From Rhynchobatus australiae (Eukaryota): a stretch of DNA of 64,000 nucleotides. The notes under the pieces were generated by a model. It was not told the DNA's origin. It saw nothing but the letters and a program-made list of their open reading frames with translations, and did not search any database. Of the stretch, positions 5,958-59,700 are shown piece after piece. The stretch spans positions 4,863,936 through 4,927,935 of the forward strand of contig JAUZTB010000084.1 of NCBI GenBank assembly GCA_034780895.1, written 5' to 3'. Position 1 is the stretch's first letter. Every line of letters begins with the position of its first letter. The position numbers were made by a program, and so were the translations under genes.

Positions 5958-7088
5958 GTAAGTACCACCATCTCCCCTTCTTCATACTAATGTGATTCTC
6001 TGATTGATAAATGGAACAAAGCACGTGTAACCTGGAAGATCAGTTAAGCAGAGACTGTCAGAGCTGAGTTTGTTCACCCTAGAGCAAAAGGTCTTGGGGA
6101 GAATTAACAGAGGTTCTGAATTCTAAAGGATATTAAGAGAGTAAAGGAGGTTGTTAACCGGGGGATGCAGATATACAGTAAGATAATTGGCCAAAATCCC
6201 AGTGGGAAATGAGAATTTTTGGTTTACACAGCGAGCTGTTGTGATCTGGAATGCATTGTCTGAAAGGACAGTGGAAGCAGGTCCAAAAAGAATGTTGAAA
6301 ATGGAACTGGGTGAAAGTAAAAATTGTCAGGGTACTGGGAGAGCAGGGGGAGTGGGGAGAGGCTTATGATGGCCTTGCAACATGGAAGGAAGGCATTTAC
6401 TTCATCAGGTCTATTGGCCCTCTGATCATTCCCATCAATCCCGTTCATTCCCCGCTTATTTCCCTGTAACATATTCTCCCCCCCCCCCTTGCTTATCAAC
6501 TCCCCCCATTCTCCTACCACTTACACACACAACGTAATTTACAGTGGCCAATTAACCTACCAACCCATCTTTGGGATATGGGTAGAAACCAGACTATCCA
6601 GAGGAAACCAACATAGTCACAGAGAACATGCATATGCTACACAGGTGGCACCAGAGGTCAGGACTTCACCTTAGAAATTGTGACCAGGATAAATTTTTGA
6701 TTAGTTGCATCATTTAGAGGAACCTTATTCTTTGGTTCATCACCTGTGAGACATTAACATGGGCAGAAACTAGTTTTAAAGACAGGCCCATGGCCAACAA
6801 ATACACAGCTGGTGAATAAGAGTGGGGATTCATGTCACTTAACCCTTTATCAGTTAATAGATTGATTATAACTCCAGGTGTCTGTCCAGTTTACAATGGG
6901 CAGAACTATACCCATGCCCTGTCATTTTGCAACCATGTTGTAATTGATTGTTTCCAGTAAAGTTTAAAGATTTCCTTTTCAACATGGGTAGCCCTAGAAT
7001 TGTTTCATGACATACTTTTTAACAGATGACCCTGGGTTCAGGGTTGAAATAGGAGCTCTCTTTGCTGACTTCTGTAATCACTTTGCAG

Positions 7089-7353
7089 GTACCACCTTAT
7101 GTTCAGCTGTTGGTTCCTGAAGCCAGAGCAGCGACCAACCTTCAGTGAGCTCAGGCTACAACTCCAGGAGCTCCTCTCCACCCTGCCCTCCCTTGACAAC
7201 CAGGACGTGGCCTACTACATAAATATTGAGGCAAATGGGGTGGTGACCAATGCGATGGGCAAGCACATTGACCAGGCAGATGAGATGGAGAACATTTGTG
7301 CAGTGAAGTTGGATGATGATGAAGAGAGGAAACTCTGGGAAGGAAAGGTTTGA
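7089..7353 (+). CDS. TAM-family RTK terminal coding exon
   Basis: tttgcag acceptor. Encodes YHLMFSCWFLKPEQRPTFSELRLQLQELLSTLPSLDNQDVAYYINIE...LWEGKV*, with subdomain XI and a YxN docking motif. Confidence 0.9.
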
Positions 7354-21600: not shown

Positions 21601-22727
21601 TGTATACTTATTGGATCTTAGCAAGTTCTGATGGAGAGCTGGCTTGTAGAGATATTCCTCTTTGTTTACTGGAATTGACATGCAGTGAAGAAATTATATT
21701 ATTATATTATTCAAACAGTTCAGATGAACATTTCATTTCCTGACCTGATGCTGTACTTAAGTCTATTTTCTCAGATCAGGAAGAATTGTCAGATTTAATA
21801 GAAGTGTTCAAAATCTTGAGAGGTTTGATGTTATAAATAAGGAGAAACTATTTTCAATCACAGAAGGTTGGATGGCAGACCATTCAAGAGAACCGGTGAA
21901 GTTCTTTTTAAATCAGTGACTTGTTGTGATCTAGAATGGATTGTTTGAACATGCAGAAAATTCAAGAGGATTTCAAAGAGAAATACAAACTATAGGTTTA
22001 AAAATGGGGAAGTTGGACTAATTAGAGAATTCTCGCAATGGGTCAACACAGCATGATGGATTAAATGGTGTCTTACTATGCTCTGTCATTCTATGATTCT
22101 AGGTTTAGATTCCTGACAACATTGTTTCATTGTTTTCCTGCATATTCATGGTGAGCAAATAGTTAAAATTTATCTAACTTTGACATATGCATCAACCCTA
22201 GTGAATTAGATTTGCCACTATAACACCAGAGTTTCAAGTTAATCTGTTTCCCCACTGACATTTACACAAACACATTTGACCATTCAGTAGATCTGTGGTG
22301 TCATCCCAATGCCTTTGTTTTAAGTCAGTTTACTTCAAAATGGCACGTGAAATGTCTCAGCTTCCCTGCACAACAGTGACTATAGTTCAGAAGTATTCCT
22401 TTGACCACGAAGCACTGGAGCAACCTGAGAATGCAAATAAATATTGTTTGTTACAGTGGACGTAAGCATCAACGAAGAGGCCAGCCTTTCCAGATGGTCA
22501 ACTTGGTGTCTTAATTCCTGCTTTGTACTGCATTTCAATAGAAATTGGAAAACCGAAAGCTATCCCTGGTGAACACTCAAGGATCATCCACATGTTATAA
22601 TCTTGAAATGTGAAGCTTGTTCACCGATGCTGTAGTTAGGGTAAACATTGTTGACTGGCAGCAAGTCTTGGTCACAAAGCAATGAGTCTAGTTGTTGAGT
22701 CAGGACATTTCTGAAATTGTATTTCTG

Positions 22728-22874
22728 TTAAACAGAAGTGTAAATGTAGACAAAAATGATCACAATCAAGTTCAGGATGGTCCCAATAATCCCCATCAGG
22801 GCTAGAATTGACTCCTCCCGATCTTCTTTGCAATCCCACCCAGTGTGGTACTCGGTACCAGAAGAGCGCTCCAT
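22728..22874 (-). CDS. TUNAR: TUNAR/megamind-family 48-aa transmembrane micropeptide (pTUNAR/BNLN-like)
   Basis: ATG at 22874 gives MERSSGTEYHTGWDCKEDREESILALMGIIGTILNLIVIIFVYIYTSV* (48 aa). The C-terminal 29 aa match my recollection of human pTUNAR (EESVLAMLGIIGTILNLIVIIFVYIYTTL) at 24 positions, and the total length is the same. A strong acceptor (cttttctctctttcaccag) lies 33 nt upstream of the ATG. The symbol denotes the family; one-to-one orthology is not established. Confidence 0.85.
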   Translation of the reverse strand: MERSSGTEYHTGWDCKEDREESILALMGIIGTILNLIVIIFVYIYTSV

Positions 22875-23554
22875 TCTAGTGGCAATCAGATGCAGCTTTA
22901 ACAGTTTCTGGTGAAAGAGAGAAAAGTTACGTTCACTTTCCTCTGCATTAGACATTGTAGGGAAAATAGTAAAGAGCAAAAAAGCAAAATTCAGTAACTC
23001 AACAATCAGACAATCACTATCTTCCATTGTGGGCTGGAAGGAGACAAGGGAGTAACTCTACAGAACCTTATTTCAATTAGTTGAGCTCATTTTATATCTT
23101 CATGGACAGGTGAATGAGGAGAACAGTCTTGTTTTCTTTGCATTGGTACTGATTATTAGTTCCTCAACTCCCACCTCATCCTTTCATTTTCTCCACTTAG
23201 CTATCCAGTCATGACTGAATCTAGCTCAAGTAGCCCATCTGATGGAGGCCAGCAAGCAACCAGCATTCCCAAGAGCAAGATTACACCATCACTGAGTTAT
23301 GAATCCCTAACCACTGGTATTGAATAGTAAGCTGGGGCTCATTTGATTCTGAATCAGACTATTGTAGTTTTAAGTCCTTTTCCAGAAATGACTATATAAT
23401 CTATGTCAACACTCCCACTGGGGCAATTCTGCAATGTTAGGATTACTGTTTATTAAATGTTGTCTGTCTGATCTTTCAGGGAGTGGTAGAAGGTCCCAAA
23501 ATTCTCCCCGGTGACCAAGGTTCAATGTTTATCTCTGAACCAATTTCAATGATA

Positions 23555-23835
23555 AGATATCGTTATTAGTCACATGTAAATCGAAACACACAGTGAAATG
23601 CATCTTTGCAGACAATGTTCTGGGAACAGCCCGCAAGTGTCACCACACTTCCGGCACCAACATAGTATGCCCACAACTTCCTAACCTGTACGTCTTTGGA
23701 ATGTGGGAGGAACCGGAGTACCCGGAGGAAACCCATGCAGACAACCCATACAAACCCCTTAAAGACAGCAGCCAGATTTGAACCCGGGTGACTGGCGCTG
23801 TAATAGCGTTATGCTAACACTAATCTACCATGCCT
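23555..23835 (-). mobile_element. tRNA-derived SINE (HE1-like)
   Basis: Reverse complement of the SINE family at 48335-48598 (gtctttggaatgtgggaggaaccggagtacccggaggaaaccc...gaacccggg...ggcgctgtaatagc). Confidence 0.75.
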
Positions 23836-24859
23836 GCATAGATTATCTCATCATTACCACACCAATGTTTACTGGAGTATGAAAAGCTCTGGCATATCAT
23901 AGCAAGTACTGCTGTTTAAGGTGGCCTTGCTATTGAATAGTAAGCTGGGGCTCATTTGTACTGCCGTTTAAAGAATCCCTAATGTCACGTCCTCTCTTTT
24001 CCTCTGACTTGTAGGTAGGTGTACAATCCATTGGCGCTGGCTTCACTCAATTCACCTTATTTCATGAGTGAGAGCACACAGGCCACTTAACTGTAGAGAG
24101 TGTGAAGAATGAATGCAATTCTGAACTCATCAAGTATACAGTCTCGCTTTTCCTGGGGCTACTGGAATAGGACTGGGATAGATTTTTAGATATTAAGGAA
24201 ATCAAGAGATTTGGAATTAGTGAAGTAAACAATCAGCCATTGAATGGCAGAGCAGACACAAGAGGCCAAATATTCCTGGTTCTATTTCTTATGTTGTTAT
24301 GTCCCAAACAGACTCCTCTAGCTGCCTTGTTGCACAAATAGGAATGACTCAACCCAGCACTAGGCAATGTAGTCTTTAACAGGGGTCCTGACCATGCTTC
24401 ATTTTGTAGAGAAGAAATGTAACACTTGAATGAGGCTTACGCAGCTGCTCAGCTACCCACTGAGATATTTACACATGTAAATCCCTCATCACCAACAAGG
24501 CTTACCCTATACATAGTCTTTGTTGCTGCCCTGGAGGTATAGCTCACGTTTATATTGTGGCTCATAACATAGTAAACATCCAAAAGTGCTTTTAAACAGC
24601 CTAATACATAGCATCTGTGCATTGTGATCATTAATTATATGGTTCAAAGCCCAGGGATTTAAGTAATGGCCTTGTGCACAGGGAAAATTGTTTTCCAGTG
24701 ATTGAACCTGTTTCCTTCCACATTCATTTGCTTCCCTTCTGGAATGCTGTTCATGCAGTGGATGTCCTTTTGCTTAATGTAACTAAACACGAACACCCCA
24801 AAACAGACTATCCAATAACTAAAACACAGATAAGTCAGTGGAACAAGTTGAACCATTTT

Positions 24860-25580
24860 TTCCCTGGTTGTATGCAGGAGCTGGCAATGAGATATACATG
24901 GGCCACACAGTATCAGACTGGATAGAATTGCTCCCTTTCCCATGTACAAGAAACATTGAGGCACACAAGGTTTGTATGGTGCCAGACAGGAAAGAATTAT
25001 TCTTATTTTAAGCACTTGTGTACTATACATGTACAGGAGTCACTGAGGTATTTGAGCATTTCATAGAACTAGGCTGGAGGGAACTGCTTCCTTTTACCTG
25101 CTGCGTACTATACATATGCTGTATACATACAGCAACTGACACTGAGATACATAAGGGCCATAAGAAACCAGGAGGATGTGAATTGGTCTCTTTGACCCAC
25201 TGTGTACTGTACATATACAGGATTCACTGATTCACACAAGAGCTGTATAGTACCAGATGGCAGAGAATTTTTCTCTTTCACCTACTGGATGCTATACATG
25301 TACGGGAACTAAAACGGTCACACATGTGGATATACTGAACCAGATGGGAGCAAATTATTTCCTTTCAACCGCTGTGTACTATAAATGTATAGCAGCTGAC
25401 CACATACACAGCCCATGCAGTTACTCACTAGTGGATTATTCTCTCTTACACACTATGTACCATACATATATAAAGAAACCATTGAAGCACACATGGCCTG
25501 TACAGTACCAGATAGGGGAAATTAATTCTTATACCATATATACAGCACATGCATAGGAGCTGACATTGAGCCACACACAT
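24860..25580. repeat. Diverged tandem array, ~85-bp period, about 8 units
   Basis: Landmark tgtgtactatacatgtacagga and its variants recur at about 25017, 25102, 25201, 25286, 25373, 25454 and 25538. Confidence 0.75.
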
Positions 25581-25800
25581 TCAGATCCAACTTATATTCT
25601 GGATTTATATAGAAATATTATCCCTGACAAATGAATACACTGCATTAGAATCAGGCAGGGAATTCNNNNNNNNNNNNNNNNNNNNNNNNNNNNCTAATGA
25701 AAACATCCAACCTCTGGTGAAAAGCTAGAATGATTTCAGAATAGGTAAATAATGATAAAACTCATATAAAATAAATATAGAGGAGAATGAGCAAGCTTAC

Positions 25801-26237
25801 CTCACAGTGCAACAATAGATGAATAGCTTTAGGCATACTTGGGAGCCAGTTTGGACATATAAAGCAGCCTACGTTCAGAAGTACAGTTATGACAACCTAA
25901 GGTGATTTTTCAGGAAATGATGGCTGGTTGAAGCATAATATTGTTTTCATCCCGCCTACACACCAAGAAAGATATTCCTCTGGGAATCCCAATCTAAATG
26001 CAACCTATTTAATTAAGCATTAAATCATTCCTTTTTTTTGGTTAGAGGAGCTAGAGAGACCTGTAGGCATCCAAAATTTGCAATCCAGCATGAAAATAAT
26101 CGCAGGGGGGAAAAATGATGGCATGTTTGCCAAGAAGTTCTGACTATCACTTTACTATAAATCTTTTTGTGTTGTTCATGTTTTAGTTGAATCTGGATGC
26201 AATACTCAGAGCGCCTCCCCGATACACAAACTGAGCA
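25801..26237 (-). other. Candidate non-coding upstream exon of the TUNAR-like gene (5' boundary unknown, runs into a gap)
   Basis: Strong minus-strand donor GAG|gtaagc at 25801/25800 upstream of the acceptor at 22908. Sequence looks unique and abuts a gap and a GA tract. Confidence 0.35.
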
Positions 26238-26433: not shown

Positions 26434-26504
<71 letters not shown>

Positions 26505-26523
26505 GAGAGGGAGAGAGAGAGAG
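26434..26523. repeat. (GA)n microsatellite
   Basis: Pure GA dinucleotide run extending out of an assembly gap. Confidence 0.97.
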
Positions 26524-42291: not shown

Positions 42292-42373
42292 ATGGATCCA
42301 AGTGAAATGACAACTACATTGGAACAGGCTGGGCACTCACAGCGGGGGAGTGTATCATCTTCTGCAGCAAGGC
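42292..42373 (+). CDS. FRMD8: FERM domain-containing protein 8 (iTAP), coding exon 1
   Basis: ttacag|ATG and C|gtaagt. Encodes MDPSEMTTTLEQAGHSQRGSVSSSAAR, similar to the human N-terminus SHRSSVSSVGAR. Confidence 0.85.
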
Positions 42374-42939
42374 GTAAGTTGCACAATTCTGCAAAAGCCA
42401 GTTTCTGTTTGATATGCACGTGCCAGAATGGAAAGAGAGACCTTTTTGCTCCCGTGATATCTCCTTCATTGAAGGTAGCCTGTATCTTTCTGACTGGCAT
42501 TAGCACTCCACTCTCTGTCCTGCAGTGAGCTATCAGGCTTCATCTAAGAATGGTTTGTAGACATGTTGTCCACTGGCAAAGGATAGAATATAATAGTTTT
42601 TCCACTTGCTTTTCAGCAGCTACCATTGGTTAGCAAATACATTTGTGTGACCAGATTGGGGTTGTCTGTGTTGCCTTTTCAAGTTGTGGGAGGTAATTCA
42701 GCACTTGATTTTAAAGGTGAATTGGATCAATAATTGGAGAAAAATATTGTGGGGATTTGGAGAAAGACTGAAATATTTGAACATAAGCATGAGAAAAGCA
42801 GGATGCAGTAGCNNNNNNNNNNNNNNNNNNNNNNNNNNNNNNNNNNNNNNNNNNNNNNNNNNNNNNNNNNNNNNNNNNNNNNNNNNNNNNNNNNNNNNNN
42901 NNNNNNNNNNNNCATGAGAAAAGCAGGATGCAGTAGCGG

Positions 42940-44400
42940 TCCAATCAGCTCCTCGAGCCTGCTCTGATGTTCAGTGAGTCCAAGGCTGATCCAGTCTTGG
43001 CCTCAACATCACTTTCCTTCTCACTCCCCATATCCTTTTGACTTATAGTTTACATTTCTGTCAATCCTTGCTTTCGGTATTCAAAAGGACACCCTATTTG
43101 GGGAAGAGAAGTGCAAAGGTTCATTCCCCTCTAACAAAAGAAATTCCCCCTCAACTGTCTTAAATTGGCAACTTGTTTTTCTGCAACTATGCCTCATAGT
43201 TCTAGATGCTCCCACCATGCTCTTCAGGATCTTCTATTTAAATAAAATCACCTATCATCTGTATGCCCAACCTGTTCATTCTTCTTTCATATACAAATCC
43301 TTTCAACTCAGGAATCAACCTAGTTAACCTTCTCTGCACTGCTTCCAAAGCAAGTGTGTCTTGTGTTTCACCAGGGCTCTTTAAAGTTGCATCAGAGCTT
43401 CCCTAACTTTTTTTTTAAACATTGTACCGATCGCAATGACGGCCAAAATTCCATTTTACTTCCTTATTGCTTGCTGCACCCGGATGCTAACTTTTTGCAT
43501 TTCATGTACTAGTGCTCACAGAGTACAGCAACATTTTGTCATCTTGTCCTTTTAAATAATAGCTTTTTATTCTTCCTTCCAAAGTGGATAACTTCACACT
43601 TTCCCACATTATGGATCATCTGCCAACTGCTTGCATCTTATATCACCTGCTTCCCTTTGGAAGCACTGTGTCCTCCACAGTTTGCACAGTTCTTTGTATC
43701 ATCAACAGATTTGCTACAGTACACTCGATGCCTTCATCCAAATCATTAGTATAGATCATAAATAGTTAAGACCCCTGCACTGATCTTTGTGGCAGCCCAT
43801 TAGTTACTGATCGCCAGTCTGAAACTGACCCATTTATCTTTTGTTTCTGTGAGTTAGCCATTCCCCTAACCCTGCATATGTGCTATCCCTAAACTACACT
43901 CTTTATTTGTGCAGTAAGCATTTATATGGCACGTAACTGAATGCCTTCTGGAAATCCAGATACATTCTATCCACTGGCTCACCCTTTCCACCTGTTTGCC
44001 GCAGCCATAAAGAACTCCAGTAAATTTGTCAAACACAGCTTCCCTTTCATAAGATAATCAAGCAGAATCATGGTTCTAAATGTCCTGCTATTTGTTCAAT
44101 AACGTTATTCCAGAATTTTCCCCATCAGAAGTTAGGATAATTGGCCTATAATTTTCTGCCATCTGTCTCCCTACTTCTCTGAATTGCCATTACATTTTTT
44201 TTTCATTTCTCTGGGAATCTCCAGAGCTAGGGGTTTTTTATAGATTATTGCCAATGTATCCACTGTCTCTGCAACTAATTCTTTCAGATCCTAGGATTCT
44301 GGCCAAGGGGCTTATCATTGTCTAGTCCCATTAGTTTGCCTAGTATCCTTTATCTCGTGATAGAGATTGTAAGTTTCTCCATTCTTTTAGCCCCTAGAAC
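42940..44400 (-). mobile_element. CR1/L2-type LINE ORF2 remnant in an FRMD8 intron
   Basis: Reverse strand carries decayed RT motifs (YLDFQKAF, SGLPQRSVQG, VANLLMIQ at the position of FADDTK) and a 3' tail near 42950. Confidence 0.7.
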
Positions 44401-45196
44401 AAATATTTTTAGTGGGGTGTTTATGGTGCCTTCTTGATAGAAGACAGATAGATCTGTATTCTANNNNNNNNNNNNNNNNNNNNNNNNNNNNNNNNNNNNN
44501 NNNNNNNNNNNNNNNNNNNNNNNNNNNNNNNNNNNNNNNNNNNNNNNNNNNNNNNNNNNNNNNNNNNNNNNNNNNNNNNNNNNNNNNNNNNNNNNNNNNN
44601 NNNNNNNNNNNNNNNNNNNNCTTGTTATAAATGTTTTAGTCAGCCTTTGGTTTCTAAAGATTTCTATTGTCTGTCCTTATAATGTTGTAGGCCTTTTAAC
44701 TTCCTTTACTCAGTCCTCAAAAGAACTGAAGTAGGCTCGATGCCCTGAATTACTTCTTGTCCCCATACTTCTATTAATAGCCTGTCAGTGTGTGAAAAAT
44801 GGTTACCATGGGTCAAGAAACTTTGACAAAACCTGGTAAGAGCAAAAAGCAATCTGTTCTTCTTCCAGTAAAACTGTCGCATTAACATTTCAGACAAAAT
44901 AGAACCAGCTGGAAATAAAAGAAACAGCAGTTGAGATAGAATCAGAGTTAGTAATCATCAGTATGATCCCTTTTCTGTTGTGTAGTTCTATTAACAGCCA
45001 GTAAAAGCAGCTAGTTAAAAACACCCAGAAGAGTGTGCCAGCTTTGGAAAATTAAAAACAAATGTTGCCTTCTGTGCAGGTGTGTGCATTCTTAAGATTT
45101 CATTGTCCAGATTTTCCCATTGTATTTAGATAAGTGATCTTGTATCTTAATAAAATGATTCTATGTTAATTTATTTTCCATCCCTGCATTTTGCAG

Positions 45197-45364
45197 ACTC
45201 AGAGGTTCTGATTTACCTGATGAACAATTCGGTCATTCAGCGCTCTGTAGAGAGTCTGTCATCTCTCACGGCAGGGGAGCTGGCCAGGACTGTCCGGGAG
45301 GCATTGCAGTTACCTGATCAGGCTTGCGAGGTTTTCTCATTCTGGCTCATCTCTCCCTTTCTTG
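45197..45364 (+). CDS. FRMD8: FRMD8 coding exon 2
   Basis: ttgcag acceptor and G|gtgagt donor. Encodes SEVLIYLMNNSVIQRSVESLSSLTAGELARTVREALQLPDQACEVFSFWLISPFL. Confidence 0.93.
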
Positions 45365-47299
45365 GTGAGTCTCCACATTTTTTGTTAGTTTTGTTGACTC
45401 GAGGTGGTTTCCTGTTGGTTGACTTCCTTTGTGGCGTGAGAGCATGGGATTGTGGGTGTTTTGGGCAAATCCCGTCCTTGTTTGCCCTTGGATGGCAATG
45501 CTTGCCTTCAACTGCTATAGTCCATGTGGTGAATGTTCTCCTTCAGTGCTATCACCTGGAGTTTCAGAATTTAAACCCTATGCTGATGAAGGAACAGCCC
45601 ATATAATTCCAAATCAAGAAGGTGTGTAACCACCAGCTGCCCTTGCCCTTCTAGGTGTTGGACATCACATCTCTTAAAAGTTGTTGCAGTGTACTATCTA
45701 AATGGTACACCCTTCAGCAACTTGTGTACCAGTGGTTGAGGGATTGAATGTTAGGGTGGCGGAAGGCTGTCAAACAACAAGATGGCTTTATGTTGGGGGT
45801 ATCGACCTTCTTGAGTGTTGTTGGAGCTGCACTCATCCCTTTCAAGAGTAAATATTTTTTCATAAGCCTGAACTTTAAACGGTGGGTAAGAATCTAGAGG
45901 TGAGTTACCTGTGCAGAATATCATCTAATATGGCTCGGCATCAAATTTAAATAAAAACTGAGAATGCTAGTAACTCTCAGCAGGTCAGGCAGAGTCAGTG
46001 GGAAGAAAAACATTTTAGTTAGCATTTGAGGTTTGATGGTGGCATTTCAGGTCTGTCAGGTTTCATTTGATAGCGCTTCAGAGAGTCTTGAAGTTGTTGC
46101 ACATTAAAAGCATTGTTTAAATGCAAATTATTGTCTCAACCAAACTCTTAAACAACTTCACAAAGCAGCTTGTGTTTGGTAATAATGATCTGGCACATAT
46201 ACAGCAGCTTGAAGAAATGGGGATACATTGCATGGGTGAGGAATGGGCTTCTTTAGATTGGAATTGAAGACTCATTGATTCCACAGCGTAGCCAGCACAC
46301 TACCTCACCTGGTGGGCACTGAAAGGTGACTGAAATAGGAATGTTTTCTGTAACGTGGTGAACACTCTTCACACACTCATGGGCCTCTTGCTTGGGAGCA
46401 ATGATTACTGTACAGTGAAATGTAATAAATAGAAATTGTTATTCCAGAGAGAGAAGGAGAGGAACAAATATCTAGAAGGCATCTTGCGGGCATAATGTGC
46501 ATATAAATATACAACACACTGAATTTTTTAGTTGTGAAGAAATTTCATGTAAAATATTGCACCCTCAGGGATTCAGCATCCAAAATGACTTCACCCACAG
46601 ATGCTTAAATACCACTGGTTTCATTGTGCACAATGGCTGCATTGTGAAGGTTTCTTTGGAAACCATTGTGAGGTAGGTGCCAGAAAGACATTGCTATGAC
46701 CCTCTGCCTATAACAGAAGGTCTAGTTTTCCCATCATTGCAGGGATTACATTCTCACCATTGATACGGTTGAATTGTTTCATTTGCTATTTAAAGCACAA
46801 CTCTGATTATCTGAAGTGTAAATTCCACCTACCGATGGAGCCTACACACAAAATCAATTCCGGGCAGCTCTCTGAGGAGTTGAGATGCATGTTTTTCCTA
46901 GCAGTTTTAATATGGGCAAGCTTGTATGAAGGAGAACTTTGTTTTTGAGGGTTTGGTGATTGCAGAGATGTAAAATGATAAATTTAGGCCAATATTGAAC
47001 TTGAGCATTAGCTCCATACAGTTCTGACCATTCAAAGATAAGGAACTGTAGATTTAAACTAGAATTAACTGGGACTGATATTAGGAAATTTTTAATGCAA
47101 GGATTGCATGTACTTTTCTACCTAAGAGAACAGCAGATATTTAGTTATGGCATATACCAATAGAATCTTATAAATTTAAAGAACAGAAGGAGGTTATTTG
47201 TTTGACTCGGGTTGAAAGCAGACAAAAATGGAGGTACTTAAATTACTCCCACTTCCCAGCTCTCCATCCATAGCCTTGTACATTACAGCATCTCTGGTT

Positions 47300-48050
47300 C
47301 TCATCCACATTTCACGCCATCTTCCACCCCCCCAGCTTCTAATTTCAACAGGTCATCCTTCATCCTTTCTGCCAGCTCCTATACGATTTCATCACCGGAT
47401 GCCTATTTCCCTCCCCTTTCAGCATTTCCAAGGGCTGACTCCTTCTGTGAATACCTGGTTCTCACCAACTACTCTCTGCTGTATTTCTCATTGGAGAAAC
47501 CAAATGCAGATTGGATGATCACATGTGAAGGTCATTCACCTGAGGAATGACCTTCAGTTTCCAGTTGCTTGCCACTAATTCCTCATCCCACCTACACTGT
47601 TACAAAGAGGCTCGGAGAACAACACCTCATCCTTTGTCTGGGCACATTGCAGCCTGTAGGACATAGTATTTAATTCTCCCACTTTAGATAACTTGCTCTT
47701 TCTATTGGATTCAGGACTGACCATTTCTGCCTATCACCCATCTCTTTCTTTTTCTTTCATTTATACATTCTGGCCTGCAAGGCATGTCCCAGTAGACCAG
47801 ATGATACGACATTACCCAGACGTTACAACATTAGCAACACATTACACAAAGGACCTTAACTGCTTCATTATTTCACTCTATCAGAGAATTTCCCTTTGCC
47901 TCATCCAGTGGCCTCCCCACTATCTCTGCTACCTACACTTACTTATTTTCTCTCTTTCCTAGTTCTGATGAAGGGTCTCAGACCTTAAACATGTACTTCA
48001 CCTTCCATAGATACTACCGGACATACTGATGTCTTCCAACATTCCTGTTT
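47300..48050 (+). mobile_element. Penelope-like element 3' remnant with terminal hammerhead-like motif
   Basis: IGETKCRLDDH...PVACH...EQHLILCLGTLQP (GIY-YIG C-terminus), then ctgatgaagggtctcagacc at about 47965. Confidence 0.7.
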
Positions 48051-48334
48051 TAATTATTCCTCGTGTTCATTCACGAACTACCAACTGCAGACAGTCAGGC
48101 AGCTATGTACCCTGGATGACTGGCTTGGTCAGTGCTGGTGCTGTTAATCTAATCTTCATGAAGTTAATTTAACAGCTCCTGCCCAGAGAACGTTGTGTTA
48201 CTGTTTGCTAAAGTGATGCTTCAAATGAGATCAGGCTTGAGGGGCCCGGTGGTCTACTTCTGCTCCTATTTTCTTATGTTCTTCTGTTTGCATCTTCTAG
48301 TGCCCAGATCTTATATCCATTGTTTCCCAGTATT

Positions 48335-48598
48335 GGTAGTGTAGCAGTCAGCATAATGCTATTGCAGCGCTAGCGACCTGGGTTCAATTCGGCTGCTGTC
48401 TGTAAGGAGCTTGTACATTCTCCCCGTGCCTGTGTGGGTTTCCTCTGGGTGCTCCGGTTTCCTGCCACATTCCAAAGATGTGCGGGTTAGGAAGTTGTGG
48501 GCATGCTTTGTTGGCGCTGGAAGCATGGCGACACTTACAGGCTGCCCCCAGAACACTACACAAAAGATGCATTTCACTGTGTGTTTCGATATACAGAT
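48335..48598 (+). mobile_element. tRNA-derived SINE (HE1-like)
   Basis: ggtagtgtagcagt (A-box-like) and gacctgggttcaattc (B-box-like), then the shared body gtgggtttcctctgggtgctccggtttcctgccacattccaaagatgtgc. Confidence 0.8.
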
Positions 48599-49583
48599 NN
48601 NNNNNNNNNNNNNNNNNNNNNNNNNNNNNNNNNNNNNNNNNNNNNNNNNNNNNNNNNNNNNNNNNNNNNNNNNNNNNNNNNNNNNNNNNNNNNNNNNNAA
48701 TTACAGATGTGTTTTGATACTCTGTGTAGCCCACAGCACAACTGCTGCCCCTGAAGACTGATTGTTGCAGTTTTTCACTCTGAGGAAGTGGAGACCAAAC
48801 TGGGGCCAAGCCTTGGAATAGATAGAAATTCTTGTATGCTTCATGGTTATTCTGCAGTTGCTTTTCCTTCATTATCTGAGCACAGTCAGTACAGGCCCAG
48901 CTGAATTTATCGCGAAGTCTCCAGGGCTGATTTTTGGACTGTGTGGAGCTTGCAATTCCTGGTGGTCCATCTGTCCCAGGAGTGGACTATCAGCCAAAGT
49001 CCATGGTTCTAGGTCACTGATCCTCCAAGGACAGTGCTGTGCCTGGCTGAGCACCTTCACAACCTCTAGACACTCCAGCCTCAACCACTAGATACAGACA
49101 CTAGGCAAAAGCAACTGAAGATTGCTTCAGCCAGTGGAGCCATTTGCAAGTGAATCTGTAGCTTCGAAAGGATATGCACTAGGCTGCAGAGGTGGAAGCA
49201 ACTTGGTTATAGNNNNNNNNNNNNNNNNNNNNNNNNNNNNNNNNNNNNNNNNNNNNNNNNNNNNNNNNNNNNNNNNNNNNNNNNNNNNNNNNNNNNNNNN
49301 NNNNNNNNNNNNGCCGGTGCGGGGGGGACAGGTCAGGTGCAGGGCCATGGGGGAGGGGGCAGGTGAAGTATAAACAGATTGTACATGAGAGAGCGATTCT
49401 TGATTAATTTCTTGATAAATATAACTTAAAAGAAATAATCTGCTTTAAGTGACTGGGTGAGTGAATGAAATAATGAATGAAAACCCAGAGAAATGCAATT
49501 TGGAAACTGAGGAACCAGAAGGCAGACTGAGTGTCGCCCATGCATGTCCATACTTCACCTAGTTTGCTTTTTTTTTCTTGCAG

Positions 49584-49685
49584 AGTTGCAGCTCAAACCC
49601 AAGCACTGTCCATACAAGCTCAGCCGGCAGTGGCCGGACCTCCTCTTCCGCTTTACCAAATGTTCCGCAGATGACATTGTTCACG
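49584..49685 (+). CDS. FRMD8: FRMD8 coding exon 3
   Basis: cttgcag acceptor and G|gtgagt donor. Encodes (E)[33 protein letters not shown]. Confidence 0.93.
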
Positions 49686-51692
49686 GTGAGTGTCGCCATG
49701 GCTAAGAACTTTGTGTAGAAATGGGAAATGGCGAGTGTCAAAGCCTGTCTATTTTGTATGTTCTTCAGTTCCAAGTCTCTCCAGATATTTTGTCAAGTCT
49801 TTATCCTGTGTTACTATAGTCTGGGCCCCTAACACTGAAAGATGGTATTTGGAACAGCAACTGTGTGGGTTATGTTAAGGGGTAGGGTAGGATGACAAGC
49901 TGGAGACAAGAACTTGGGTGCCATCAAGGTAGCTGAGGAATTTAAATTCATTAGATAAATCTGAGTTAAAGGCTGGTTTCACTCATGGAGCCTGTGAAAT
50001 TATAAAACTCCATCTGGTTCATTAATGTTATTCAGGGAAGGAAAATTACTGACCTTGCATGTGTGTGATTCCAAGACCTCAGCAATATGGTTTACTCTCA
50101 GTTGTCCTTTGGGTGGCATGGCTGTTAACCCTGCTACTTAGTTTCAGGGAGCTAGTTTTGATCCTGAACTTGGCTGCTGTGTGTATGGAGTTTTCACGTT
50201 CTCTCCATGATTATATAGGTTTCCTCTGGATGTTCTGGGTTCCTCCCTTATCCCAAAGGTGTTCTGGGATTTATTGGCTGCTGTAAATTGCGCTAAAGTG
50301 GTAGGAAAAAAATCTCAGGGGAGTTGGTGGGCATGTGTGAGAGAAAATAGGTTGCAGAACGACAGGGGAACGGGATTGATGGGATTCCTCTGCTGGATGC
50401 CAGCATGAATTAGATGGGCCGAATTGCTTCTTTCGGTGTTGTGATATGTGGGTAAATGATGGAGCAGTTTGGGCTGTAAATGCTGGCATTCTGTGAATGG
50501 GTTTAGCTGCATACTGTGGTTTCTTGGGCTCTTCCTTCGCCCACCAATACTGATATCAATTACAATGCACACTAGGGTTGAACCTAAGCCTCTGTCCTCC
50601 TTGCTGAGATCACAGTGAATGGTGCAGTTGTCCAGTATAGGTTGAACTTTCAATGTAGCTTGCTGGATCTTGGATTGGAGTTGGGTATATATTGATTTCA
50701 TGTCCTGAGGAAAGGAATAGATGTTTTTTTTTGCACCAAAACATGGGGAATTAATCTTGGATAGCTGGCTGAGAAACGTTGAAGTCTGAAGCCAGGTTAT
50801 AGAAACTGGCCATTAGTTTGGCAATTTCTTCCCCTTGCAAGGATTGCAGATGGTGATTTTTGGTATTGTAGACCTCTCTTCACAATGGTCCATGTTCCTG
50901 GTTGTGTCATTTGAAAGCTGTATATGTGAATAGAGAGTGGTGGTGTGTTAGGGTTGAGAAGAAGGCAGGCCTGTTAAAGTCAAGTGAGTTATGCAGAGAA
51001 AAGTTGAGGGGAGAGTCTGAAACTTGGAGGTTCGGATTCAAGGTAAGGGGTCAACAAGTTAAGACTGAGTTTTGTTCCCCATTCTTTGGAATCCCTGAGA
51101 ATATGCTGTAGGGAAATGAGGGTGGAGGTGTGGAGTGTGATGCAGGATTGCTCCCCTGAGTGCTGGCATGGGTGTTGGGCTGAATGGTATGTATAAGAGG
51201 GCTGTGGATGCTCGGTCACTGAGCTGAGATTAAAGGTCTTTTGGACATGGCATTGAGGAATGGGCAGGAAAGCTTGAGGTAGGAGATCCGGGAATGGCGG
51301 AATGGTAAACCCCAACTCTGCTCTGGTAAAATCAGCATGCCCCAGATAATGTGAGATGGAGAAGTTAAGATGTTACTCCCCAGTGACTGTTGCACCCTGT
51401 GTGCCACTGTGCTAAGGACTGCTGATTTGATGTATGGACAGAGGAGCTTAGAGTCAGCCAGTTGCAGCTACAATTGAAGGTGGCATTTTGGGCTAGGAAG
51501 GGAAACATCAGGGTTTACTCTCAATCCGCTTCCCAGTCAGGGAACATGGATTTTGGGTCAGAAAGTCTGCATTCTCTGCCCTAAACATCCTCCTTTCACT
51601 ACATACTTGTGACCTGGTACATGGAAAACCTCAAGATGATGTCCAAGCTGTGTTCATTGGGTATTCATTAACCTTGTCTCTCATACTCACAG

Positions 51693-51751
51693 ATGAACCA
51701 ACCTTACAGTATCGAAGGAATGTATTCTTCCCCAAGAGCAAAGAGTTACAG
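51693..51751 (+). CDS. FRMD8: FRMD8 coding exon 4
   Basis: ctcacag acceptor and CAG|gttagt donor. Encodes (D)EPTLQYRRNVFFPKSKELQ. Confidence 0.93.
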
Positions 51752-52262
51752 GTTAGTTGAATACAATTTAATGATCTTGATGCTTCATTCTGATAATCAA
51801 ACTGCTGCAGATATGACAGTCTTCACTCCAAATCTCTGCTTTTTGAGATTTTTTTTGAAAGGGGAGGACTGCAGATGCCTTTTTTAAAATCTGATTCCAA
51901 GATAAAACCTAGGAATCTGATTATCTTATCAGTTCTATAAAATGCCTTGCATTTTGTTTCTTCCTGTATAATTTTGATTTTTCACTCAAGTCGCTGGGAA
52001 CCAGTATACAAAGCAAGAATTGGGATAAAAAAATTAAATGTTCTCCAAAGGCAGTGATTTCTTTGTTTTAGTAGCATTAAAAGACCTCATTTAGTATAAT
52101 CTGCCTCCTTGGGAGCATCAATGCTGGTCTTGGTAGGATTCCTATCAGTCTATAGAATCTTTTGCTGTGCCCTGTGCTTGAAATATTCTCTTCCATCTGT
52201 CTCTCCACAGACAGATTCCTGGTTAAACAGGTTGAATGCTGAACCTAAGTTTGATATTTCAG

Positions 52263-52429
52263 ATCAAGGATGAAGGCATTCTCCGTCTGTTGTATGAAGA
52301 GGCCAAATGTAATATTCTGGAGGGCCGGTATCCCTATGACTTGGAAGACTGCCTTCAACTGGGGGCCCTCGCTTGTCGAATCGAGCTTGGCCCCTTTGAT
52401 CAGGAGCAGCACAATCTTGCTTTCTTCAG
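52263..52429 (+). CDS. FRMD8: FRMD8 coding exon 5
   Basis: tttcag acceptor and AG|gtgagg donor. Encodes [55 protein letters not shown]. Confidence 0.94.
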
Positions 52430-53121
52430 GTGAGGGGAGCAGTGTTGTTGAAACAGGAAAGCATTGAGGGGTTTGGGCTGAATAATTGGGTTTGAAGGTG
52501 CAGGTCTGTGTTAGCATTGAACTCGTCTCTCAGTAGTATTTGGAGTGCAAAAGCCAAGCTTTCTATCTTATTGTGCTTTCCTTAAAGTTGTTGGTTGGGT
52601 GGTGAGAAGGTCAAAGTTGGGCATTAAAGAGAAATAATTCAGGAAAGGGCACTGTTCCTGGATTAGGAAATTTTACAATTAAGAAAAGGTTATTTCGCCT
52701 CTCTATCAAATTCTCCTGCCAGCACCTCCAAAATCGTAAATTGGTTCCTTTATACCTTAGCTGTTTCTGCACTTTACTGTGTACACCTTTTGGTTGACTC
52801 GTCTCAAAGTACTTAATTAGCAGCAAAGTACTGTGGCTCATCCTGGGGTCGTGTAAGAGGCAAACCTAAACCTTTCTGGACAATAAAGATCCAACAACTC
52901 CTTCTTTGTAAGGTGCTGAAGCAAAGGTTTATTCCCTCAGCTGACATCATTAAACACTTGAACTGGTCAATGCCATATTGCTGTTTGTTGGAGCTTGTCA
53001 TGTTGGAGACTTTCCTCAGTTACAAAGTGACCACATTTCAAATGTTCTGTGAAGCTTTGGGGTGTCCTAAGTGGCAATGGAAGATCAAATCTTTTTACTT
53101 TAACCTGAAAATTACTTCCAG

Positions 53122-53340
53122 GGGGAAAATTGACCTGTTCCTCCCCACGCACCTGTGCAAGAAGCATGGTGGGTTACTGTCAGCATTCCGATCCCGAGGA
53201 GCCAAGCAGCATGGCTATGAAGAGATGCTGCTCGAGTCCTTCAGGCAGCTGGTGGATGACGCTGCATGTGAGGAGACTGAGGCACTGAAGTTACTCTACC
53301 GCCAGTATCTACAAAAGTGTCACCTGCTGCTGTATTATGG
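53122..53340 (+). CDS. FRMD8: FRMD8 coding exon 6
   Basis: ttccag acceptor and GG|gtaaga donor. Encodes GKIDLFLPTHLCKKHGGLLSAFRSRG...YRQYLQKCHLLLYYG. Confidence 0.93.
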
Positions 53341-55312
53341 GTAAGACATGATGGGTTACAGTGAATCCTGGAAAATAATAAAAGTACAAGTTGAAAAGAG
53401 GTATACTTGGGTTAAGTTGCATAGTCAAGGTCTTCCTCGCATACAAAACCAATTGCTTAGGGTCCTAGTAATTACTTGGCAGATGTCAGGAATAAGGGGT
53501 CATAAAAATTAGGCTGTTCAGGAGTGATGCCAGGAAGCACTTCTGAGATACAAAGAGTCACAAGGCACAGAAAGAGGATCTTCAGCNNNNNNNNNNAAAT
53601 TTGATAATGGAGAATCATAGTTTTATTTTAGTTGGGTTGGGGTTTTCATTCATTTTTGATTTGGGACATGTGCATTAGTGGAGTTGTCTTGACTGAGCAC
53701 CTTGTTGGACATAAAAATGCTCAATGTGCATTTAATGCCCAACCCCAATTGTCTTTGAGAAGATGGTGGTAAGTCACTTTCTTGAGTAGCTTCAGTTCCT
53801 CTGAGTGCTATTAGGTAGGGAGTTCCAGCACTAGGAACTGCAATATGTCTTCAACTGACAATTCTGTGCAACTTGGAGAGGAATGTGCAGATGATGGTGG
53901 TACTTTGTCTCCACTGCCATTGTTCTTCTTTGCAGCAGAAATTGTGGATTTGGGAGGTGCTGTTGGAGTAGCAGTGTTTTGTTTTCATAGATGGTGCTCA
54001 CTACTGCTACTGCGTGCTGGGTGTGGACGGGGTGCCAGTCAAATGGGTAGCTTTGCACTGGGTTGTTTTGAGCTTCTTGTATTGTTGGAGCTGCACTCAT
54101 TGAAACAAGTGGAGAGTCCTCCATGTTCCTGGCTTGTGCCTTCTAAAGACAATACAGAAGTTTTGGGACAAGTTACTCATTGCTACAATGACAATAGTGA
54201 AGGCAATGAAGTAGTTTGTTAACTGAACGCAATCAATCCAATCCTATCCTATCCCAGGTAAAATAACCACTTCTACCCTCTTACAAGTATAAAGCTCAAT
54301 TGGGGTTCAGTTTCAGTGTCTTTGATCAGTTGGTGGTCACTGGTGCTAGTTAACGATCCTAATTCAGTGAGGTAAATGGGATCCCTCTGGGTAAATGTGC
54401 ACAGGTATGGAACAGAAAATGCTGGAGGTACTAAGCAGGTCAGACAGTATCAATGGAAAAAGAAACTTGGTGCTTTAGATTGGAGACTTTTCATCAGAGG
54501 TCAAGTAATGGATGTCTGTGTCCTTGGCTTCCTCTATTACCTACATTTGGGATGTTGCCAGGAATCCTCTTCCTCGACTTGGGTGAGAATTTATGTATAC
54601 TAGGCATGCATTCTATTGACCTTGTAAGATTAAAATGTAGTGTGTTTTTGATTTTGATAGAAATTAATGGGGTATTTAAATCTCTTCTGTTTGTAGAGAA
54701 TATCTTTGACAGGGAATATATCCTCAAAAACCAAACTGGGGTACACTGGCTTCAGAGACTTNNNNNNNNNNNNNNNNNNNNNNNNNNNNNNNNNNNNNNN
54801 NNNNNNNNNNNNNNNNNNNNNNNNNNNNNNNNNNNNNNNNNNNNNNNNNNNNNNNNNNNNNGCTTCAGAGACTTTTTGGGTAAAGGCTGGTTGAATTCTT
54901 TCATGAAAAGCAATTAATGCAAGGTTCAATAAATTTAAATCTGAATTGTTTTTTTGTACTCACTCAGGGTTTGGAGAGAGCAAGGGATTACCAAGTTCCA
55001 CATTCTGTGTGAATAAGAAAATTGCTTTTCAATTCTTGTTATGTTTATGTGACTGTCTTGGTCTCCAGTTTGAGTTTAAGAATCCTTCATATTGAAACAT
55101 CTTCCCATTTGAACATTTTCATAACTTGTATCAGGCCATAACTCACACTTTTCCTGTTACTATTGCTTCTCAGGTCAGTTATTGCCCTTCTAAATCTCTC
55201 TTGCAACTTTGACTTAAGACCCTTTTTCAAGTAAGGGAGATGAATGATACTTGTGCAGTGAATGAGTTCCTGCTATTGCTCTGTACCCACTCACTTACTC
55301 CTGTGCTTTTAG

Positions 55313-55436
55313 CTCCGCAGTATTCACAGGCCAGATTGATAAACCAGTTCAGAGCTTTCTGCAGCGGAATGGACGCAAACCAGTAACCATAGCGATCAGC
55401 CTGGATGGTGTGTCTGTCATGGACAACAAGGAAAAG
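55313..55436 (+). CDS. FRMD8: FRMD8 coding exon 7
   Basis: ttttag acceptor and AAG|gtatat donor. Encodes [41 protein letters not shown]. Confidence 0.93.
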
Positions 55437-56611
55437 GTATATTTTAGTAATTCTGTGAATATATCTCCTGCTACGTGGTGGAAATTGTAGTAAAACTTGG
55501 TTGTAAAGGAAAGGACATTAACTCATATCATCTCAGCCATGGTCCATTTAATGTCAAGTCCTATGATATCCACTCCACTGATGATAAGCCAATTATAATA
55601 AAAAAGATAGCAAAATTCACCACTGCTGGTATTATTAAAATTGAGGGTACATGTTTCTAAGGCAAAATAGAAGTTTTACTCTGTGCCCAACCTTTGCCTT
55701 TAGTTTCATTGCCTAATTTAACGACATGACTGGTCTCTTGTACATTGATGGAGGGAGCTCAGATGCAGACTGGTTCGGAATGATTGAAGAAAACCACTGA
55801 AGTTCTAACTTAACTCCATCCCTCTGGGTAGTGTGGAGGTAGCTTTAATCTGTAACCCATGCAGTTCCTGCTCTAGGAGTGTAGAAAGAGCTTTTAATCC
55901 ATTCTGAACTTGGTTAAACATCTTGTGTTGTTTCTGATGAGCAGCATTATTTATCCATCTTTTAGTTTGGCTTCTTGTTCTGCTGTTCCCATGTTCCCAG
56001 CTTCTACAATGCTACATTTTGGAGCAATCTATTGCCAAATTAAGAGCCTGATAGAGAATTTCTGAGGCTTAGGATGGGGCAACAATGGCATATGGGACGC
56101 AACAGTTCAGATGAGGTCTTCCCCTCAAGTGCTCCTTTGTTGACCATTCAAGGAGGGAGGCATTGCCCTGCTCAACCATTGTCTTGTCTGAATGAGTGAA
56201 ACAGGCTTAAAGGACTGTCACCTTGTTGCTTTGCTAACAAAAGTATGAGGATGTCAGGTGAAGTTTTGCATGATGTTTGCTGAGTTAGTGCATACAGTCA
56301 TCACACACTTCCAGTTTACAAAGAGTGAGAGGTTCATTTAGTAACCCTGGCCCACACACGGGCCTGTGGAAGTGGGTGTGAAGGTGGAATTTCATGGTTG
56401 TGGTGATCTGATGCCATGCCATCATTGCCCACTGCTGATGCAGTGTGCGGACAGGGCTGGCCGGAGAGACCTCAGTGCTAACAAAACATTTCTGGAGAAT
56501 CTTCAGGAGAGAGCAAGTCAAAAGGGCCTTTAAACTTTCTAGAGCTGATCAACGGGTATTATGAGCATCAATTGAGATGAATCTATGCTGTCTCTCTGCC
56601 TTTTTTCTCAG

Positions 56612-56761
56612 TGTGTGCTCTTGGCTCTGCGTTTCCATGAGCTCTCGTGGGAATATACCTCCTCTGAGGATGAAGACTCTGATGACATCTTGTGGCTGGA
56701 ATTTGATGGAGAGGAGGGGGGAGCTGTTGTAAACAAGCTGCTGAAGATCTACTCCAAACAG
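56612..56761 (+). CDS. FRMD8: FRMD8 coding exon 8
   Basis: ttctcag acceptor and CAG|gtacca donor. Encodes [50 protein letters not shown]. Confidence 0.94.
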
Positions 56762-59700
56762 GTACCATGAGCTTCTCATTTAAAATGCACCAGTGTTTGT
56801 AAATGATGAGTAATCTTCAGGGCCTTTGCTGTGCTGTTTGTTCTTTTTTAAGCCCTGCGAACACTCCTTGTGAACCATGTTTACTTTGTACTCTCTAAGC
56901 ACACAGGAACACAGAATCATAAATGCACACACAGTATTTTAATGATCTATTGTCACCGCCTCGATTTCTTATTGATGGGAAAAAAATTGGATTGCTTACT
57001 CTGAGTGCTGAGGCAGATCTTTAAATACTGAATGGTCTAAGTGTTTGCTTAATTAGAGATGAGCAGTTTGATTAATTCTTCCTGAAGGTGTATTTCCAGT
57101 GATTTCGATATTCTAAAGGAAATTAAGGGATTAATTTCAGGTTAATCAATTCATGATTCCTATTGCTGATCGTAACTGATTTGGGGAGTGGTAGAGAGAG
57201 TGCAAACCCCCTTCATCCTTTACTCATCAAATGGTGTCTGTTTTGCTATCGGAGCTCGCTGAGCTTTGCCATTTCCTTTTGAAACATATGACTGTATTGG
57301 ATTGTAACTTCCTGTGCAAACACTAATGTGTTTACACCCATTAACTCTGTTTTGCTCATCAATTTTGAATATGAGTAATGACCAGTTTAACTGGAATGGG
57401 TTTAAATTTCATGTCTTAACCAGTAGAAAGAAAGCACAACCCTCTCTAACCCAGTGCCAAATGTTGGTCAAATGATTTGTGGATGGTTTGGGTTTGTAAA
57501 CTGTGGAGTAAAAATTGGATTTGATGTGATGTATCATAAGGAAGTGAATTTGTACAGATTCAGCAACTAAATCTTTCAAGTATTTGATATGTTTGGCATC
57601 ATCAGTCAAGAGAGGAGCAATAGGCAAAGTCACCCTTGATCCACTGTGGGGTTGCTATCTGAAGATGCCATCTGGACTGAGCTGATAGTTGGGGTAGGCT
57701 GCAAATGTTCTGCCTTCACTGGCCATTTAAACACACATAATCAGGTAGTCAATGGCATGGAGATTTTTTTGTGGGATATAGGGCTTGCTGGCAAAAGAAA
57801 CAAGTCCAAAGAAGTTCACTGGGGAAGCATGGGCATACTATGTCACTTGCAGTTATAAATATCTGTACAGATGTACAGGCTCTCTCTTGCACGAAAGTTT
57901 AGAACTAGGGTCCATTATAATAAGATGGTCACTGATAAATTCTGTTGTAAATTTATCCAGAGAGTGCGGATGTTGAATTTGCTCCTTCAGGGGTGGTTGG
58001 GCCAGGCATCAAATGCATTTGAAGAAATTGGATAAATGCATAAAGGTGAAAGGAATGGAAGGATATGGTGCTGGGAAAGCGTGAACGAATCACTAGCACA
58101 GAGCAGATGGGCCAAATGGCTTATTTCTATGATCTGCTCTGATTAATGTCCAAACTATTTGATCCAGACCACCCCTGGTGGAAATGTGAGTGTTTAAAGG
58201 AACTGCAGTAAATGTTCTGTAGAGATTTCAAATGACATGGTTTAAGACCTGTAAATCCCCATTTTTAAGCCAGTATCTTGCCTTCCCTATGGACCTGCTG
58301 CAGGTTCACAGAATTTTCAGTCTCCAGCCTTCTGTGTTATTCAAAAGAACTGAAAGGTTTTTTTGGGAGCGGCTGTGAAAGAATAATGGATTGGTCAGAG
58401 AATAATTGCAGGTGACTACTTTCTCAAGCTAACTGGAAAATTAACCCTCTAATTATTTAAAAAATATGAGAGCCAATATCTTTGGTAGTCTGCATGTAAA
58501 GTTTGAATTTCTTTCCCTCACATTGTTTAAGTGCGTGTAGATAGGCCAGAAAATAGTATATAATTGCCCACAATCTCCAAGTGTTGAGGTTGAGTGACGA
58601 CATGTTAAAGTGTCAATCTGGCTGGGATAACCAGTTGGTGCTGATCTCAGTCTATTTGGATGGCACAATTACACCCTATCCTGGGTAAAGAACGGGGAAA
58701 ATCCTGGGGTCTGGATTGCTACTTGGAGACCTAATTGATTGAGATTTTGTGTCAATCGTGTTAGGCCATGAGTACCATAGTTCAAGTCTGCCATCACTTG
58801 TCACTTGGGTACGGAGAAGTTTTCAGGCAAATAAAACTATGGATATTTTTGTTTTTCATTCAGTGTTGAGAAGATCAGCATTTATTGCCCTCTTTCAAAA
58901 ATAAATGTTTATTAAATATTTACAATGGGCACATATTCAGCAGAATATTTACAAAATTTAAATTCAATTAAAACACAGCCATCCTTATCCAGGATGCACT
59001 CCAGCCCCAGAGGTACTCAATTGTCACAGAAGACCTCCAAGCCAGTGGACATCACATGTTCTCTCTCTCCGGGTACATCCAGCCATGGACGTAGCCTCAG
59101 ATATTGCCCTTGAACTGAGTGAATGGCAGAGAACAGTTAAAAGTCAACTATGTTTTTATGACTCGAGTCCAGACAGTGGTAGATTTCCTTCTGAAGGGCA
59201 TTGAGCCAGAAAGCTGTTAAACCAGCTTTTACGATACTACCTATTTAAAATGCCAACATCATGAGTACCCAACAGAGCACTGGTTTGTTATTGTACTCTT
59301 GGTCTTACAATCTGAAGGCTTGTAGGTACTGTACTTGCATACTGGTGTGCTGGGACCTGCAGCAAACCCTTGCCCTCTGGTGCTCTTGCATCAATGAATT
59401 GCCCACGGCTTGGTGTGAGGAGGTAGTCTCTGAGGGCTGGTGTTGGGTGGGGGTGCAGCTACTTGTGCTGAAATGTGGAATTTGGGTCAACACTTTGGTC
59501 GCAACAGTGGGTGAGGGAAAGGGGCTAGTAGTGGCTGCTTAGTGTTGATGGACCACCGAACTCCTATGATCTTTGTCATCACCACATGTTGGATGTGTTG
59601 GAAACTGCTGTCTCCCCCTCACCTTGTGGCTGCCCCAAGGCCACCCACCATCATTGAACTTGGTACCATAGAGAAGTCCCTGAATGGGGAAAGAAGCCAT

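Follow-up and report, generated by a model that had tools for sequence, protein, structure and literature searches.

A TUNAR-family micropeptide gene beside FRMD8 in Rhynchobatus australiae, one of four copies and a probable ohnologue of TUNAR

The window analysed here is the whole stretch of 64,000 nucleotides of Rhynchobatus australiae DNA (contig JAUZTB010000084.1 of assembly GCA_034780895.1, positions 4,863,936 to 4,927,935; hereafter C84). It contains a short gene on the reverse strand, placed between an exon of a TAM-family receptor kinase and FRMD8 (Table 1). One FRMD8 exon was 96% identical to FRMD8 of the sawfish Pristis pectinata and 81–87% identical to that of five other sharks and rays; with ten coding exons mapped, the assignment of the locus to FRMD8 in the initial annotation was confirmed. 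No solved-structure relative of FRMD8 was found by sequence, and a Pfam scan of the 50 kb beyond it (100 of 378 frames) yielded no credible gene. The kinase exon is likely Axl-like, and exons of this type (last kinase exon) occur four times in the genome (C84, C1, C2 and C82). The available part of PMC4898815 describes Axl-like as a fourth TAM gene, reported lost in tetrapods but surviving outside them. Rfam gave no match in 144 kb (window plus flanks, upstream exon of the short gene included), and thus no MALAT1-type element was found near FRMD8. The repeat-rich stretch between the short gene and FRMD8 holds an integrase zinc-binding fragment of a retroelement (PF17921; 33932-34315, minus strand).

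Table 1. Features of the micropeptide gene and its neighbours (window coordinates).
Feature	Position	Strand	Basis
TUNAR-family frame, 48 codons plus TAA	22728..22874	-	ATG at 22874; frame reading, Pfam match
Hydrophobic helix at the C-terminus (residues 23-45), a predicted single-pass membrane segment	22740..22808	-	Hydropathy; conserved residues on one helix face
Opening 33 bases of last exon; 11 codons without stop in the frame of the ATG	22875..22907	-	Covered by spliced contig
99-aa unspliced call (artefact)	22728..23027	-	First 40 codons intronic
GT..AG intron of 2893 bases; phase 0 relative to the long form	22908..25800	-	Run X1 contig joins 25801 to 22907
12 codons from in-frame ATG at 25836, putative 71-aa long form	25801..25836	-	Frame reading; leader comparison
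Upstream (leader) exon	25801..26060	-	26057-25801 in contig; acceptor AG 26062-26061 predicted
3' untranslated region, extent reached by run X1 contigs	21931..22727	-	Contig coverage
Candidate poly(A) signals beyond the 3' UTR coverage	21799, 21568	-	Candidates by sequence only
Frame that contains the final kinase exon of a receptor kinase of the TAM family	7078..7353	+	Best solved-structure matches MERTK, TYRO3, AXL
FRMD8 (ten coding exons), arranged head to head with the TUNAR-family gene	42292..62247	+	Exon mapping

The 48-codon frame is an intact TUNAR-family micropeptide. Its product matched the Pfam TUNAR model (PF21954) with 68.9 bits (E 3.4e-19) at a curated cut-off of 27 bits, and no other family was reported. 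The net charge over residues 1–21 is −4, and the highest 19-residue hydropathy value, 2.76, begins at residue 23. The peptide therefore has the PF21954 layout of about 48 residues with an acidic stretch and one C-terminal hydrophobic helix, as the initial annotation had described it. All 19 columns that are invariant in an alignment of 23 sequences are kept. The same domain was recognised in 93 of 93 database candidates of near-equal length and in all of the best 120 of 123 longer matches. We consider it very probable that the peptide is translated.

A contig of 690 bases assembled from run X1, derived from a relative of R. australiae (organism A), places its first 257 bases on 26057-25801 and the remainder on 22907-22491. 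This contig is taken as a spliced transcript, because its junction meets the predicted acceptor exactly. The acceptor AG lies at 22909-22908 and 15 of the 17 bases directly before it are pyrimidines. The evidence for splicing is one contig from one run of one study in a related species; the run is labelled 'RNA? (probably DNA)', and among the matching runs listed none is recorded as RNA. The strong acceptor with a junction at 22907, foreseen from the genomic sequence, is thus used in a related species; the upstream exon and the long isoform described below had been overlooked. On the same single contig, the spliced transcript carries the frame at the beginning of its last exon, as in the PF21954 type. 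Read depth over 22939-23541 was absent in run X1 and present in both other runs. The frame had correctly been said to be buried in a longer call of 99 residues, starting at 23027. That call is an artefact, since the spliced contig joins 25801 to 22907 and removes the start, which falls within the intron.

Within the piece of the last exon that could be compared with organism A there were 16 differences, of which the 14 listed comprise 2 in the frame (one silent, one T-to-S) and 12 in the untranslated region. The deficit in the coding part has a p of 0.016 with the 2 listed coding changes and of 0.12 if the 2 unlisted ones are coding as well; the sum counts 28 UTR bases twice. In run X3 (organism C), which also covers the frame, none of the listed changes or gaps falls within it. 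The upstream exon, a single-copy sequence in the genome, differs from organism A at 1 of 257 bases, compared with 50 of 825 bases in the 3' UTR (p 2.6e-5). It contains five short upstream frames, starting at 26028, 26020, 25950, 25936 and 25858, and our guess is that translational control by these frames accounts for the constraint. No RNA structure was detected in the exon, as 197 of 200 shuffled sequences folded at least as well. Searches with blastn and nhmmer did not find a counterpart in the 200 kb around the other three copies (see below). The single candidate from a motif scan, located in the BIRC6 intron, was weak (score 9.7 vs 14.6); upstream of the copy on contig C1, 38,349 of the 73,613 bases scanned read N. 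As a separate observation, the conservation of the leader exon (25801-26057, minus strand) far exceeds that of the 3' UTR and is higher even than in the coding frame. Some 400 bases further upstream, a long CT repeat (26434-26640, minus strand) borders on an assembly gap, and may mark a first exon or promoter region.

The gene also has the upstream in-frame start for a long isoform that is typical of PF21954. When compared with 57 distinct database leaders, its 12 leader codons ranked first of 1225 donor-adjacent windows (score 14.6, next 6.6) and none of 5000 shuffles reached this score, although the database leaders were chosen by a pattern set after the likeness had been noticed, a selection that favours the result. 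In database TUNAR proteins of 73–74 residues, a leader of 12 or 13 residues precedes a junction, and the usual start follows 13 residues after that junction. For the extension of 23 residues as a whole, a local profile test was not significant (125 of 2000 shuffles) and a global test was (1 of 500). In mammalian TUNAR the 48-residue start is the essential one according to the accessible text of PMC8416971, and a 65-residue form is translated about three times less in that of PMC8758570. Conservation of the leader exon points to an old and perhaps relevant long isoform, a form that the mammalian studies left aside. Separately, the copy in the BIRC6 intron (contig C76, excerpt L002 around 1647-1700, minus strand) carries a stop in frame, seven codons ahead of its ATG. 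This seems to block a long form comparable to the catshark isoform of 67–68 residues, unless another acceptor is used; the run of five A in front of this ATG may be genuine or result from an assembly error.

A genome-wide search with both the peptide and the Pfam model gave four strong matches, on contigs C84, C76, C1 and C82; these were the only 4 of 23 scored candidates over the Pfam cut-off, and all four are open frames of 48–52 residues. The C1 copy is TUNAR proper, the positional orthologue: C14orf132 follows it 89 kb downstream on the same strand, an HHIPL-type exon is 290 kb away and GSKIP 2.1 Mb, and the N-terminus of the C1 copy groups with canonical TUNAR (z 8.0). The C76 copy lies antisense between two consecutive BIRC6 exons, which is the place of zebrafish megamind in the available sections of PMC3668355. 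The intact C82 copy (52 residues) is found near 5.315 Mb (excerpt L004:1450-1608, plus strand), 30 kb from an exon of a TWIK-type channel. Near the C82 and FRMD8-linked copies no HHIPL-type gene was found; one such exon is on an unplaced contig. The FRMD8-linked copy is thus at neither the TUNAR place beside C14orf132 nor the megamind place in the BIRC6 intron, both of which have copies of their own. This excludes a translocated TUNAR orthologue and agrees with the separate paralogue that had been proposed, although the C82 copy, which completes the set of four, had been missed. Among the family copies in this genome the FRMD8-linked core is closest to that of C76 (27 of 31 residues identical). 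Over the 31 core codons pS ranged from 0.63 to 0.92 and pN/pS from 0.08 to 0.31 in all six pairs of copies. The four copies are therefore old and under purifying selection as proteins, with the helix kept and the silent sites saturated. A retrocopy or an assembly duplicate is excluded by the retained intron and the saturated silent sites.

The chromosomal surroundings of the four copies were then compared through paralogue sets. All ten EML HELP matches (six genes by position) fall on C84, C76, C1 and C82, which make up 14% of the genome. DPF genes are present on C1, C84 and C82; the C84 exon, the only one compared with human DPF2, is identical at all but two of 54 residues. For ATG2, searched with a stricter first-pass filter, C1 and C84 were the only contigs with matches; on both, ATG2 lies about 2.1 Mb from the TUNAR-family copy, in the same order and strand, so that the ATG2 paralogy expected between the FRMD8-linked and TUNAR chromosomes is present. 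Over the four contigs the sets are thus represented 4/4 (EML), 3/4 (DPF), 2/4 (ATG2) and 3/4 (TAM kinase exon, with one more on C2). The FRMD8-linked locus shares no close-range neighbour with the other three loci, and the synteny is of chromosome scale. The human counterparts of the four contigs would be 14q32, 2p, 19q13 and 11q13, which together form a known set from the two rounds of genome duplication (2R); the gene names ATG2A/B, DPF1/3, EML1-6, KCNK6 and HHIPL1 are likewise presumed assignments. Overall, the data make it highly probable that the FRMD8-linked gene is a true 2R ohnologue of TUNAR. The reading we prefer, with a probability of roughly 0.8, is that of an intact TUNAR-family gene, spliced in a relative, which is one of four copies on four paralogous chromosomes, is likely the ohnologue of TUNAR and would tune SERCA.

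Relatives in databases were collected by a profile search of 1.84 billion representative proteins, which gave 134 proteins at E values up to 0.001. A protein atlas queried with bird TUNAR returned three TUNAR clusters, with no other entry above 0.9. The bird protein (P0006) is identical to the FRMD8-linked core at 25 of 31 positions. In the first 16 residues, aligned on an ungapped anchor, it shares 6, and the C1 positional orthologue shares equally many. The N-terminus had been called completely different; 10 of its first 16 residues do differ, but with 6 of 16 identical to bird TUNAR the difference is not complete. None of the 320 other proteins fetched was an orthologue with the FRMD8-linked N-terminus (best local score 32, first 19 residues). 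The C76 copy has an annotated shark orthologue (P0040), the C82 copy has annotated orthologues in two sharks (P0230, P0315), and a canonical-type protein of Heptranchias is in the databases (P0075). The family also reaches lamprey, and a further group has members in gecko, newt, sturgeon and teleosts, so that its extent had been assumed too narrowly. This last group consists of predicted proteins from Gekko, Pleurodeles, Huso, Megalops and Alosa with an arginine after the EE pair. A tree of 91 sequences over 32 columns leaves the FRMD8-linked copy unplaced. No literature on TUNAR paralogues in cartilaginous fish, or on the FRMD8-linked copy or the four-member set, was found by title or abstract; the original megamind study is outside the coverage of this search. 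Ulitsky 2011 reportedly classed the megamind homologues by locus and may already list this one. The FRMD8-linked gene would otherwise be a new member of a known family.

In principle, the gene could be a real ohnologue that extends beyond cartilaginous fish, with the arginine-after-EE group as its orthologue, unrecognised in databases; the FRMD8-linked paralogue may then equal one of the megamind classes of the 2011 paper. The variable part of the FRMD8-linked peptide does score above shuffles against this group (z 4.5, 0 of 300), but the score leans on four residues just before the core and comes from 40 comparisons between groups sorted by eye. The survival of the likely neighbour Axl-like outside tetrapods (PMC4898815, in the part available) would fit as well. 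In the core the group stands closer to the C82 copy, with 25.2 of 29, whereas the FRMD8-linked copy reaches 20.5 of 29, and in the tree the group joins the C82 copy with a weak support of 60. The loss beside mammalian FRMD8 and the confinement to cartilaginous fish, both proposed initially, are conjectural. We regard this extension as possible but rather unlikely.

The systems closest to the FRMD8-linked gene are members of the same family. Mammalian and tetrapod TUNAR (pTUNAR, BNLN; PF21954) has the same 48 residues, last-exon start, phase-0 intron and longer in-frame form. The FRMD8-linked gene, in contrast, is on the contig of FRMD8, DPF2 and ATG2 and not beside C14orf132, and its acceptor is 11 codons from the ATG, compared with 13 in TUNAR. 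Zebrafish megamind (linc-birc6) belongs to the BIRC6-intron type, represented here by the C76 copy, and the N-termini of this type and of the FRMD8-linked peptide are unrelated by score (z 0.3). The shark proteins XP_067875302.1 and XP_072405182.1, annotated automatically as 'protein TUNAR' or 'TUNAR-like', are members of the four-copy set, but they are orthologues of the C82 copy (tree support 98) and not of the FRMD8-linked one. Outside the family, the regulins and DWORF (phospholamban, sarcolipin, myoregulin, endoregulin and another-regulin) are small single-pass ER peptides that act on SERCA. The FRMD8-linked peptide differs from these in that its transmembrane helix has no xLFxxF motif, and the available text of PMC8758570 likewise finds TUNAR without apparent sequence similarity to regulins.

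The mammalian TUNAR peptide, whose frame is also at the start of the last exon (PMC8416971, available text), has been linked to SERCA in two studies that disagree on the sign of the effect. In the accessible part of PMC8758570 it localises to the ER, co-precipitates with SERCA2 and behaves as an activator, with faster clearance of calcium; in that of PMC8416971 it binds SERCA3 and lowers ER calcium, and is a possible inhibitor. Among 77 distinct cores, the kept positions E21, L24, G28, G31, T32, N35, V38, V42 and T46 fall within 60 degrees of one helix face and the variable ones lie opposite, the conservation of N35, V38 and T46 being partly fixed by the anchoring pattern of the core alignment. 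Methionine at position 27, as in the FRMD8-linked copy, occurs in 1% of these cores. By analogy with the mammalian peptide, we think it reasonably probable that the FRMD8-linked peptide acts on SERCA, and it likely works in the manner of a regulin without itself being one. Scanning ribosomes would pass the five short upstream frames and start at 25836 (71 residues) or at 22874 (48 residues), the latter matching the start used in mammals. The product would insert as a tail-anchored ER protein with its acidic N-terminus in the cytosol. The face formed by E21, L24, G28, G31, T32, N35, V42 and T46 would pack against the pump and change the rate of calcium uptake, and the divergent N-terminus together with the leader exon may set isoform preference and dose.

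Alternatively, the peptide could be made but act on another membrane partner, or as an oligomer, rather than on SERCA. The missing regulin motif is consistent with this, as are the opposite effects in PMC8758570 and PMC8416971, both of which, in their available text, relied on overexpression and co-precipitation; a plasma-membrane pump is not excluded in the sections available of PMC8758570. Against this, SERCA isoforms were found by two independent groups, one through an unbiased pull-down (same sources, as far as available), and the FRMD8-linked copy keeps every invariant column of the alignment. A partner other than SERCA is thus a minority prospect, and SERCA remains the target that we favour.

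It is improbable that the gene arose within the shark-ray lineage, by duplication of one gene or of a segment, and reached its place beside FRMD8 by chance. Such an origin could draw on the variable part, which resembles canonical TUNAR too (z 3.7, reached by 1 of 300 shuffles), on the equal length of 48 residues and on the fact that no immediate neighbour is common with the C1 locus. However, each of the four EML-bearing contigs has exactly one copy, ATG2 is placed at equal distance, order and strand on C1 and C84, the silent sites are saturated relative to all three other copies, and the intron is retained, which rules out a retrocopy. Slightly less probable still is that the locus acts mainly as an RNA or regulatory element, with the upstream exon under selection and the peptide secondary or redundant: the conservation of that exon relative to the 3' UTR, the RNA function ascribed to TUNAR (PMC8758570 and PMC6886504, available text) and a zebrafish megamind mutant without phenotype (PMC6347452, available text) speak for it, but the exon folds no better than shuffles and has no Rfam family, and between the copies the amino acids are kept while third codon positions are scrambled, for which selection on the peptide is the sole explanation.

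The gene next to TUNAR proper may belong to the same story. Its product, C14orf132, has a C-terminal helix that can be matched to that of TUNAR in an ungapped alignment (probability 76.8, pairwise E 2.1e-5), while its N-terminus is unrelated and the Pfam TUNAR model misses it. None of 1000 shuffles matched this likeness in any of three sequences, a comparison made without a background of unrelated membrane helices. The genome has one C14orf132 match, on C1 near 142.372 Mb (excerpt L046:1501-1725, minus strand), where it adjoins TUNAR. Going by sequence, C14orf132 is a possible ancient tandem paralogue of TUNAR. The only paper found to name both genes is, in its available part, a clinical genetics report.

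A wider reading, which we put forward tentatively and consider less likely than the alternative of its being wrong, is that TUNAR, rather than standing alone in mammals, is the survivor of a complete four-member ohnologue family that is whole in cartilaginous fish and not yet described, with the FRMD8-linked gene as its fourth member. The two-start design (leader exon of 12 codons plus core of 48 residues) would then predate the doublings, C14orf132 would be an older tandem sister that shares the helix face, the whole would form one so far unrecognised family of ER calcium-pump regulators, and hidden paralogues would explain why deletion of megamind is without effect. Such unrecognised paralogues offer a testable reason for megamind mutants that have no phenotype. 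Micropeptides have rarely been traced through the vertebrate genome doublings, and four natural variants with a fixed helix and differing N-termini make a panel for finding whether TUNAR activates or inhibits SERCA and which part of it decides this. The family and its likely function were already known, which limits the surprise. In addition, the profile search brought up two very divergent groups of the TUNAR family (P0293-P0314, mostly unnamed Logan records), 46–66 residues long and seen by that search only.
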